A DNA stretch of 64,000 bases, taken from assembly GCA_902521725.1 (NCBI GenBank), contig CABYTF010000004.1, forward strand, positions 19,049 through 83,048, given 5' to 3'. Below are positions 51,001-54,000 of the stretch, piece by piece. Within the stretch, counting starts at the first letter, position 1. Each line of letters starts with the position of its first letter. Made by a program: the position numbers. This DNA is from an uncultured Gammaproteobacteria bacterium (lineage in GTDB: Bacteria > Pseudomonadota > Gammaproteobacteria > GCA-002705445 > GCA-002716945).

Positions 51001-54000
51001 ATAAATCACCTTCCATAATATAATATTGCCGAAGCTTGGCTTGGCTTCAATACTGTCAAGTTTATGCCCTTGACTTATTGCATATCTTTCAATAACATTC
51101 TCTGCCCTTTCTTTTTGAATGTATGCAATAGATTGATATGATATTGCCCAAACGATCGCGTATGTTGCGAATGAGCTTTTATTTTTATGCATCGCTAGTA
51201 TAACTAAAAATACTATCGGAAGTGTAAATAATGGATCTATTACTGATATCGTATTGAATGCGATTCTAGTATCGGCAAATGGCCAGAGTAATTGTGTTCC
51301 ATATGTTGTAAGTGAATCAATAATTCCATGAGTGGCATATCCAAGTGTTGAGTATAGATATGTGATTCCAAATGTAAGCTGATAACGGCGAGTAAAAATA
51401 AAATAAAATACAATAGAGCAAATAAGACCTCCAAGTGGAATGAATAATAATGAATGTGTGAAGTGTCTGTGATATTCGAGAAATAAAAGAGGATCATCAT
51501 TTGATCTTATGAAAATATCTATATCAGGTGCTAGACCAGCTAAAAAACCAAGTAGAGTAATTATTATAATGTTATTCTTCTTACTTAAAGATTGAGCTGC
51601 GGCTGCACCTACTATTCCTTGTGTTAATGGATCCATATTAATTATGCTTTGTAGTGTCTTTCATAAACTGAGGATTTTCATTTACACAGTTCATTGCATG
51701 CCATAATAAAGTGCGAAAGTTACAAGCAGAGGAACAACAAGCATAAAAATAATGATTGCTATGATCCAAGTCATAGGCTTTTCTCGATCAATGAATCCAA
51801 ATATTAATCCCTTTCTATCTTTCATTTCACTAGTTGAAGCAGACCATAAGCGAATAACAAACCGAAGATAAAACCACCATTAACAAATAAAAGGTACTCT
51901 CCGGCTATAGACCCTGCTGATAAAACAAAAAAGTATGTGCCGGGTCTCGCGTTGCTCATTAAAATTATGCATCTGCATAGTCCTTAAGCATTTTCGTAAC
52001 CTCTATAGCATGCATCTCCTCTGCTTTAATCATTCCTCTTGCGTATTCCTCTATGTAAATACTTTCATTTTTTACAATATCAAGCAAAATCTTATAGAGT
52101 CCCACTGCCTCTTTCTCATGTTCCGAACTCTCATTAAGCAGGTCAATTGTTGAGTGCTTATTCGATTCCTCAATGATTTGTATTTTTAGTGATGGATGAC
52201 CACCCAAACCAGTTACTATCTCACCTGCTTCTTGTGCATGAAGTAAGGATTCACTCGCTTGGTCTTTAAAAAATTGAGTTAAGCTCAATCGATCTCTTCC
52301 TGTTATCATCAATGCATAATGAGTGTATCTGACCACGCCAGATAATTCATATTCCATAATTTTATTTAGTATTTCCATTACTTCATTTGTTTTATTATTG
52401 TCCATAATATCCTCCGTATTTTATCATAGTAACATAGTGAACATGTATAACACAGTGTAGACTTAGCAAATGATCTTGTACTTAATATGCTTGAGTTGGC
52501 TAGTTATATTTCCACTATTGACAACATATGCTGTTCTCGCAGTTTCCCAGATCGGTATATCTTTTTTACTATCACCAATATAATCAAATATCAAATCACC
52601 AAATTTATCTTTTAGATACCTAATTTTATTCTTGCTGATCATATTCGTCTCTAGAGTCGTACCAACAGAAAAGTCAAACAATCCAAGATATTTTGAAATA
52701 GCATCAACATATTTATAGTATGATCCTGATATCAGTATTGTATGTGTATATTTTTCTTTATTGTTCGTAATGAAATCTATAACAGATTGATTAAATGTTA
52801 TATTTTCGAGTGAATATGATGTGATATCGAATAAATATTTCTTAGCGTATGTTTTACCTTTAAACAAAAATAATAAAATTAATTTTGGTAATAGGTATAT
52901 TCTATAGAGTAGAAGAAATTTGATTCCTATATATATCATATCTGTTTTAATTAGCGTGTTATCTAAATCAACAGCAAGAATATACAATTGTTTTTTTCTA
53001 TTCACGAGATATGCTAATTATTTTCTTCATCTTTTTTAAAAGCACTATACTTTCCATCAGTTAGATTTTGAAGAAAGTCAATAGCATCTTTTCCAGATAG
53101 ATATTTTAGTTCATCGTAGTCATCATAAGAACTAACTATTTGTATTTTAAAACCCTCAATAGTATTTCTAATATAATTTTGATCGGTTTCAGAGAAAGAT
53201 GAGATACATTCATTTAGATGTTCTTCCAAAATGTATCCATCTTTTTTACCAGTCCTAATCAAATTTTTTATCTGATCAGACAAACTCATTTTTCAAGAAT
53301 TTTTAGACAGTTTTCACTTGAACGGCCCTTATACCTTTCGGTCCGTCTTCAGTTTCAAACTCAACTTTATCATTTTCTCTGATTGTTCCGTCAATCAGAT
53401 CAGATTGATGTACGAATATATCTTTATCGCCTTCATCAGGTTTGATGAATCCAAAAGCTTTGGTTGTATCAAACCACTTTACTGTTCCTGTTTTCAAGAT
53501 AATCTCCTTAGTTAATTAATAATTAAGAAGGTCTACAAATCAAAAAATTCACGAACAACAGCTTAATTACAATGACTATTATATATGCATAAACTAAAAA
53601 GAAAAGGTATAAAAATAATTGAATCTACTTGTTTTTAGTAAAATCCTTGAGTAAATCAGGCATAATATTTTTTAATTTATATACTGTATCTTTTTTTATT
53701 TTATTTTTCGCCGTAACCAGAGAATCATACGAATTCAAGTTATTTTTTAAAGTAGATTTAGAATAGTCCAGGATGAATTCTAATATAAACTTTTTAGCAG
53801 CCTCGGCATTCCCTCTCAATGTAGATATAACATTAGAAACTTCAACATTATCATGATCTGGATGCCAACAATCAAAATCAGTAACCATTCCTATATTCAC
53901 ATATCTAAGTGATGCCTCTCTGCATAACTTTGCCTCAGGCATACTAGTCATTCCAATTACATCACACCTCCAATTTTGGAATAATCTTGATTCCTCTTGT

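Follow-up and report, generated by a model that had tools for sequence, protein, structure and literature searches.

What does region 1.1 of a sigma factor do when it is encoded on its own, outside any sigma factor? The question is raised by an open reading frame (ORF) of 91 amino acids (aa) in a 64,000-nucleotide (nt) stretch of DNA from an uncultured Gammaproteobacteria bacterium (contig CABYTF010000004.1 of GenBank assembly GCA_902521725.1, positions 19,049 to 83,048), a stretch that we refer to in its whole length as the window. A sequence-only reading of the window had proposed that this ORF codes for a detached copy of the autoinhibitory, DNA-mimicking region 1.1 of RpoD that could act on RNA polymerase. 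The analysis described here confirmed the ORF at 53014-53289 and placed it on the minus strand. Over its N-terminal ~60 residues the product shows homology to the region 1.1 found in primary (group 1) sigma factors, and the best reading of the protein, which we put forward tentatively, is that it may be a trans-acting sigma-1.1-like modulator of RNA polymerase. The gene and the parts of its product are as follows.

53014 to 53289, minus strand: stand-alone sigma region 1.1-like ORF, ATG at 53289, TAG at 53014-53016, 91 aa
53104 to 53289, minus strand: region 1.1-like globular domain, residues 1-62, delimited by Pfam, PDB profile alignment, hhalign, AlphaFold2 (AF2) and Foldseek
53038 to 53121, minus strand: family-specific C-terminal motif, residues 57-84, delimited by invariant alignment columns
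53017 to 53037, minus strand: variable mixed-charge tail KKDEENN, residues 85-91, with an AF2 predicted local distance difference test (pLDDT) score below 50

Several separate kinds of evidence show that the resemblance to region 1.1 is real. The Pfam profile Sigma70_r1_1 (PF03979), which has a gathering cut-off of 22.5 bits, matched residues 5-65 of the 91-aa protein with 22.7 bits, and it matched 19 of 20 family members at E <= 0.01 (best E 4.8e-7) with no other family in common. The sequence-only reading had allowed that a profile search might assign the protein to an unrelated family, whereas these searches assign it to Sigma70_r1_1 and to no non-sigma family. When the family profile was compared with PDB sequences the top 17 matches were all RpoD, always at the N-terminus, with residues 4-61 of the query aligning with residues 6-65 of Escherichia coli RpoD. 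Comparison with the E. coli RpoD N-terminus by hhalign likewise placed residues 1-62 on residues 1-66 (E 2.8e-5, 27% identity). The family profile scored 28.1 bits against residues 1-100 of E. coli RpoD and 23.3 bits against the Thermotoga maritima fragment, while the best of 5000 composition-matched shuffles reached 11.9 bits. The domain carries the region 1.1 hallmark IKxLIxxGKxxGY(I/L) ... IQ(I/V), and the family-invariant residues G14, G18, Y19, I49 and Q50 fall on the GKxxGY and GIQV elements of E. coli and T. maritima region 1.1. This likeness at the level of sequence, including GKxxGY and IQ(I/V), indicates that the domain derives from the N-terminus of a sigma factor. The earlier description of the alignment as residue-for-residue is however too strong, as the protein and E. 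coli region 1.1 share 27-33% of their residues and two small gaps interrupt the alignment.

The predicted structure of the protein is in line with this. The AF2 model has a mean pLDDT of 83, with values of 85-93 over residues 1-60, and consists of a helix at residues 3-17, a strand at 19-21, helices at 22-29 and 34-46 and a strand at 50-52, an order (helix-strand-helix-helix-strand) that reproduces the three helices and two short strands of the solved sigma domain 1.1 fold. A Foldseek search of the PDB ranked domain 1.1 of Bacillus subtilis SigA first and second (9a58 and 5mww; template modelling scores to 5mww of 0.52/0.61), and ranks 1-3 and 8 are all SigA or sigma-70 region 1.1 (9a58, 5mww, 8to1 and 4llg). 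As the sequence-only reading had stated, nothing of sigma regions 2-4 is present; Pfam and NCBIfam gave no match of the protein to regions 1.2, 2, 3 or 4, so it does not have the architecture of a group 1 sigma factor, and the absence extends to region 1.2 as well. Relative to region 1.1 as it occurs in sigma factors (PF03979; 2k6x from T. maritima, 5mww from B. subtilis, 4lk1 and related entries from E. coli) the protein is thus homologous over about 60 residues, sharing the IKxLIxxGKxxGY plus IQ(I/V) core and the predicted fold. It differs in being free-standing, with no linker, region 1.2 or domains 2-4, in belonging to a family that is much less acidic and in having a conserved C-terminal motif.

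A reading frame this short could have arisen by chance or be what is left of the 5' end of a pseudogenised rpoD, a possibility that its length alone would favor and that we regard as vanishingly small. Pairwise comparison of the gene with four related loci (L001-L004) gave ratios of nonsynonymous to synonymous substitution rates (dN/dS) of 0.05-0.18 at dS values of up to ~2. Among the related loci 47 of 77 complete ORFs are exactly 91 aa long and the remainder are mostly 87-100 aa. Given the low dN/dS, a length fixed at ~91 aa over hundreds of clusters and a conserved chromosomal position, the ORF is a real gene under purifying selection. A pseudogenised remnant of rpoD is ruled out by this purifying selection, by the intact frame and fixed length in two deep clades and by the absence of any rpoD remnant nearby.

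For the family to which the gene belongs, a search with the single sequence returned 256 protein clusters at E <= 0.001 and one with the family profile returned 537 at E <= 0.01, nearly all of them 89-100 aa, and the members are unnamed or called 'hypothetical protein' in their source databases, with some at most tagged PF03979. The genomes with matches were assembled from single cells or from metagenomes and bear the labels 'uncultured gamma proteobacterium', 'Gammaproteobacteria bacterium' or 'Pseudomonadota bacterium', among them the single-cell genome AG-349-E17 (CACAVP01), AG-461-I20 (CACLCV01) and the metagenome-assembled genome JAYQJW01, and matches in metagenomes come from marine, Tara and similar surveys. 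The family (~540 clusters) is restricted to uncultured marine gammaproteobacteria. At a GC content of about 33%, the window itself contains housekeeping genes and a tmRNA of the one-piece type; going by this GC content and the habitat, a tentative guess would be that the lineage might be SAR86. No relatives were found in IMG/VR viral contigs, GenBank phages or PLSDB plasmids and PADLOC gave no defence match, and we accordingly rejected a phage, plasmid or defence origin; PHROGs gave weak matches only, to a sigma-factor family, and the fold matches in BFVD were meaningless. For comparison of context we used 88 related loci comprising 481 kb and distinguished two clades, clade A with proteins at least 65% identical to that of the window and clade B with proteins 49-60% identical.

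The same loci address whether the gene was once part of an rpoD. The sequence-only reading had itself named a disrupted rpoD as an alternative, with the remainder of the gene adjacent in relatives. No rpoD is present in the window or in the 88 related loci, and since none lies nearby, the region 1.1-like gene is not an rpoD fragment, a result with which its low dN/dS and conserved length agree. A different origin would be gene fission, in which the rpoD of this lineage lost region 1.1 and the 91-aa gene now supplies it separately. Group 1 sigma factors of Proteobacteria generally carry region 1.1. We consider fission highly improbable, as the gene never adjoins rpoD in the 88 loci, bears a conserved motif that sigma factors lack and has a charge unlike that of gammaproteobacterial region 1.1. 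In addition, when 1.8 billion representatives were searched exhaustively with HMMER, just 24 sequences were returned at E <= 0.001, with no full-length RpoD among them, which argues against a recent split from any known rpoD. All but one of the 24 are family members, fragments or fusions, and the sole outsider is a 1422-aa repeat protein matched over a 31-residue stretch. By this search the family is narrow and was not recently copied from any known rpoD.

One metagenome contig (L089, positions 1..532) codes for a 159-aa protein (P0135) in which a part matching Sigma70_r2 precedes a region 1.1-like segment of 132 nt. The segment is 97% identical to the clade B gene (L072, L007), and both of its flanks are unrelated. 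The arrangement, seen in this one contig, is an assembly chimera or else a genuine fusion between a sigma-like gene and the region 1.1-like domain.

The most conserved part of the protein is not its region 1.1-like domain but a C-terminal motif that the sequence-only reading had overlooked. The motif, (D/E)YDExKY(L/M)(S/T)GxxAIxFLQxLSDGxxxAF, covers residues 57-84 and holds 11 of the 20 alignment columns that are invariant across both clades, down to 46% identity. AF2 predicts a helix at residues 66-75 within it, where pLDDT drops from 82 to 55. The motif has no match in Pfam at E <= 10 and no significant match in the PDB. We considered whether it could be a degenerate sigma region 1.2 or linker helix, and rejected this candidate; the best hhalign alignment falls on E. 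coli residues 111-127 (LTREGEIDIAKRIEDGI) with a probability of 0.5% and E 0.11, and as 6% of shuffles equal the score of this alignment the likeness to region 1.2 is not significant.

The charge of the protein also sets it apart from region 1.1 of sigma factors. The 91-aa protein has a computed isoelectric point of 4.55 and a net charge of -7, and the family means are -4 for the whole protein and -1 for the N-domain, whereas in E. coli residues 1-56 (region 1.1) carry -8 and residues 57-95 (the linker) carry -11, or ~-19 together. The acidic tail described earlier is weak, as the last seven residues, KKDEENN, have a net charge of -1, tails across the family are 4-13 residues long with a mean net charge of -0.3, and the acidity of the protein is instead concentrated in the DYDE motif at residues 55-61. 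The proposal of DNA mimicry by an acidic surface or tail fares no better, with charge falling far below that of E. coli region 1.1; the strongly negative charge of the region 1.1 DNA mimic is found neither in the 91-aa protein nor in its family. Thus, the DNA-mimic property behind much of the known behavior of region 1.1 is not conserved in this family.

How could such a protein act on transcription? The region 1.1 of sigma-70 stays in the main DNA channel of the polymerase because it is tethered to region 1.2 and domain 2. A free copy of region 1.1 would need an anchor of its own, for which the invariant C-terminal motif would be the obvious candidate. The modulator reading accordingly envisages a protein that would bind RNA polymerase as a dissociable accessory factor, with the conserved C-terminal motif serving as anchor in place of the sigma tether. 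Entry of DNA into the channel, whether promoter or non-specific, would then be gated by the region 1.1-like domain, or else this domain would compete with the region 1.1 of sigma-70, and in the clade of the window the protein would be made from the csp transcript described below. Region 1.1 also controls the retention of sigma on core polymerase and its release (PMC12478191) and, as it decides this release, a trans-acting copy could influence sigma exchange.

The best functional analogy is with RpoE, the delta subunit of the Firmicutes polymerase, whose N-domain resembles sigma 1.1. Delta binds RNA polymerase, competes functionally with sigma 1.1 and shows negative cooperativity with sigma A (PMC7749165). 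A more specific and more doubtful version of the modulator reading is that the 91-aa protein might be a delta-like 'sigma 1.1 in trans' subunit, made of a paralogue of sigma region 1.1 and a new anchoring motif, which would gate the channel or tune sigma exchange and release independently of sigma-70 in abundant streamlined marine gammaproteobacteria, and which in one clade would be co-expressed with a CspE-like protein. The analogy does not extend to the sequence. A hhalign comparison with an approximate B. subtilis RpoE sequence gave a probability of 0.06%, and the HARE-HTH domain of delta (PF05066) has no Pfam match in the 91-aa protein at E <= 1. Delta also ends in a polyanionic tail of ~80 residues with a net charge of -47, whereas the 91-aa protein has a 30-residue motif and a neutral tail of ~7 residues, and delta occurs in Firmicutes whereas this family occurs in marine Gammaproteobacteria. 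These comparisons thus gave no sign of homology to delta, with no sequence or profile match and a short neutral tail. A second comparison is with SutA of Pseudomonas aeruginosa, a small acidic protein that binds the beta1 domain of RNA polymerase and modulates initiation, and that its authors liken to sigma-70 region 1.1 (bioRxiv 10.1101/423384). SutA and the 91-aa protein are both small, acidic and gammaproteobacterial. SutA is however largely disordered and without similarity to any known domain according to its authors (bioRxiv 10.1101/423384), a description that sets it apart from the 91-aa protein with its folded region 1.1-like domain matching PF03979.

Several observations weigh against a role as a polymerase modulator. 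The Pfam score of the 91-aa protein itself exceeds the cut-off by just 0.2 bits, and Foldseek gave weak E-values (0.06-0.2), although a domain of 60 residues can be expected to score no better. The modest charge makes electrostatic DNA mimicry unlikely as a mechanism, and hhalign detects no sequence similarity to delta. The gene neighborhood gives no consistent functional signal since it differs between the clades; the deeper clade B lacks csp at this position and in 16 loci has a gene for an HhH-GPD glycosylase directly upstream instead. Finally, proteins other than sigma factors can have region 1.1-like folds, the predicted sensor domains of Menshen NsnA being one case (PMC12065111), so the fold alone is no proof of polymerase binding. 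NsnA-type domains resemble the 91-aa protein in this respect but are N-terminal in large defence proteins, whereas the 91-aa gene is chromosomal in a housekeeping context and has no PADLOC match.

These points bear on a rival explanation in which the region 1.1-like fold was co-opted for a role unrelated to RNA polymerase, as an adaptor or as a nucleic-acid or protein-binding module, with the C-terminal motif as the true functional site. We consider this possible, if on the whole unlikely. Conservation of the C-terminal motif in excess of the region 1.1-like part, loss of the acidic DNA-mimic character and the change of neighbor from csp to a DNA glycosylase between clades would all be in keeping with such a co-option, as would the region 1.1-like folds of non-sigma proteins (PMC12065111) and the globular domain of histone H1 that appears among the weak Foldseek matches. 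The likeness to region 1.1 is however seen in sequence as well as in fold, with the GKxxGY and IQ(I/V) hallmarks, and no other family matches the 91-aa protein.

A further alternative is that the protein targets sigma and not core polymerase, either by providing region 1.1 in trans for an alternative sigma factor or by binding domains of sigma-70 in the manner of an anti-sigma factor. Autoinhibition of DNA binding by free sigma is the role in which region 1.1 was originally described, and alternative sigma factors are not known to carry region 1.1, both of which count in favor of this explanation. So does the best alignment of the C-terminal motif, which lands on sigma region 1.2, but that likeness does not reach significance by either hhalign probability or shuffling, and no sigma gene lies in the neighborhood in the window or in the 88 loci. 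On the side of a sigma target there is also the finding that delta favors exchange for sigma factors that lack region 1.1 (PMC7749165). Overall we judge this alternative to be improbable.

Returning to the modulator reading, its interest would lie in how region 1.1 is otherwise deployed. To our knowledge, region 1.1 has been described only as a domain tethered within primary sigma factors, and no description of a free-standing region 1.1 protein was found in the literature searched. The domain itself is known, and the novelty is that an abundant marine lineage has it as a stand-alone protein, combined with a new conserved motif. Region 1.1 gates the DNA channel of the polymerase, affects promoter selectivity and drives sigma release (PMC12478191). 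If the modulator reading is correct, then in Gammaproteobacteria region 1.1 function could be supplied as a dissociable factor, paralleling delta in Firmicutes, and the protein would be a means of regulating transcription in ocean bacteria with streamlined genomes, in which regulators are generally few. If the polymerase is not bound, the family would still be a clean case of a sigma-derived domain recruited to another role.

In the window the region 1.1-like gene lies within a compact group of minus-strand genes, of which the other parts are as follows.

53498 to 53583, minus strand: putative csp promoter with -10 box TATAAT (53578-53583) and a ~75-nt leader, called from sequence alone
53303 to 53497, minus strand: csp gene, 64 aa, with TTG start and strong AAGGAG ribosome-binding site (Pfam CSD 4.2e-22 over residues 3-63)
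52463 to 53005, minus strand: HAD-like hydrolase gene with a GTG start 8 nt past the stop of the region 1.1-like ORF (Pfam HAD; N-terminal part of NCBIfam PRK08238)

The csp product has the CSD domain and approximately the size (about 65-70 aa) that are characteristic of the cold-shock protein family. Its closest NCBIfam model is CspE, at 72.6 bits and under the equivalog cut-off of 120, and the gene has a dN/dS of 0.00-0.05. The co-orientation and the 13-nt gap between csp and the region 1.1-like ORF reported by the sequence-only reading are correct, but the order is the reverse of that reported; on the minus strand, where both of them lie, csp comes first and the ORF sits downstream (3') of it. 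The long leader does belong to csp. This leader is nearly invariant across 34 distinct loci (from L001-L074) despite saturated synonymous sites in the flanking genes, and contains an invariant 9-bp stem (GUAAUUAAG/CUUAAUUAU) with no covariation. It matched no Rfam family and may be an uncharacterised csp regulatory leader.

When 51800-53800 was scanned for promoters and terminators, the matches did not exceed chance expectation and no terminator-like site appeared. As no such site lies between the three genes, csp, the region 1.1-like ORF and the HAD-like gene look like one transcription unit driven from upstream of csp, and the putative csp promoter would then drive the region 1.1-like gene too. 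A Shine-Dalgarno sequence is absent before the region 1.1-like ORF in most lineages whereas csp has AAGGAG, so translation of the ORF is probably much lower than that of csp and its product is probably made at a far lower level than Csp. The HAD-like gene probably shares the transcript with the ORF. It is nonetheless not an obligatory partner, as it is missing from four loci (L012, L047, L059 and L077) in which bfr directly follows the region 1.1-like gene. The 180-aa HAD-like protein scores 115.6 bits against the N-terminal part of PRK08238 ('UbiA family prenyltransferase'), a HAD-UbiA fusion family, and no UbiA-type gene adjoins the HAD-like gene in the window.

Across the related loci the gene has a fixed chromosomal position, in the order IscR, IscU, a small membrane protein, the HhH-GPD glycosylase, a variable segment, the region 1.1-like gene, a second variable segment, YdjM, PntA and PntB. 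In clade A csp is directly upstream in 55 of the 55 loci with upstream sequence, at gaps of 8-15 nt and in one case of 48 nt, and epimerase and MTAP genes usually come before csp. In clade B PntA or YdjM comes after the region 1.1-like gene. The csp association is thus a feature at the level of a clade and not of the family. The suggestion of stress-linked expression has co-transcription with csp as its sole basis, and does not carry over to the family, as this linkage is invariant in clade A and absent from the deeper clade. Within clade A, a CspE-like neighbor fits a transcription-associated role, the CspE family being named by NCBIfam as transcription antiterminators.

Some further features of these loci and of the window can be noted. 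In one locus (L005, from the metagenome-assembled genome contig JAYQJW010000002.1) homopolymer frameshifts split many genes, among them the region 1.1-like gene and those for IscR, IscU, MTAP, HAD, YdjM and PntA, a pattern suggestive of long-read assembly errors and not of biology. The interval that separates ydjM from the ferritin-like gene in the window contains, at 51638..51959 on the minus strand, three short ORFs (43-45 aa), overlapping or next to each other, with hydrophobic, membrane-like products. Between pntA and ydjM the window contains, at 45970..50577, genes for an SxtJ-like protein and a carbamoyltransferase and two ORFs without a Pfam match. In a 96% identical relative (L001) ydjM and pntA are adjacent and there is instead extra sequence between bfr and ydjM; because ydjM and pntA adjoin there, 45970..50577 is a strain-variable island. 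The one-piece tmRNA, at 41648..41994 on the plus strand, is standard and has the tag peptide AENKPLALAA, and genes for tRNA-Leu, tRNA-Cys and tRNA-Gly are located at 20.7-22.4 kb of the window.

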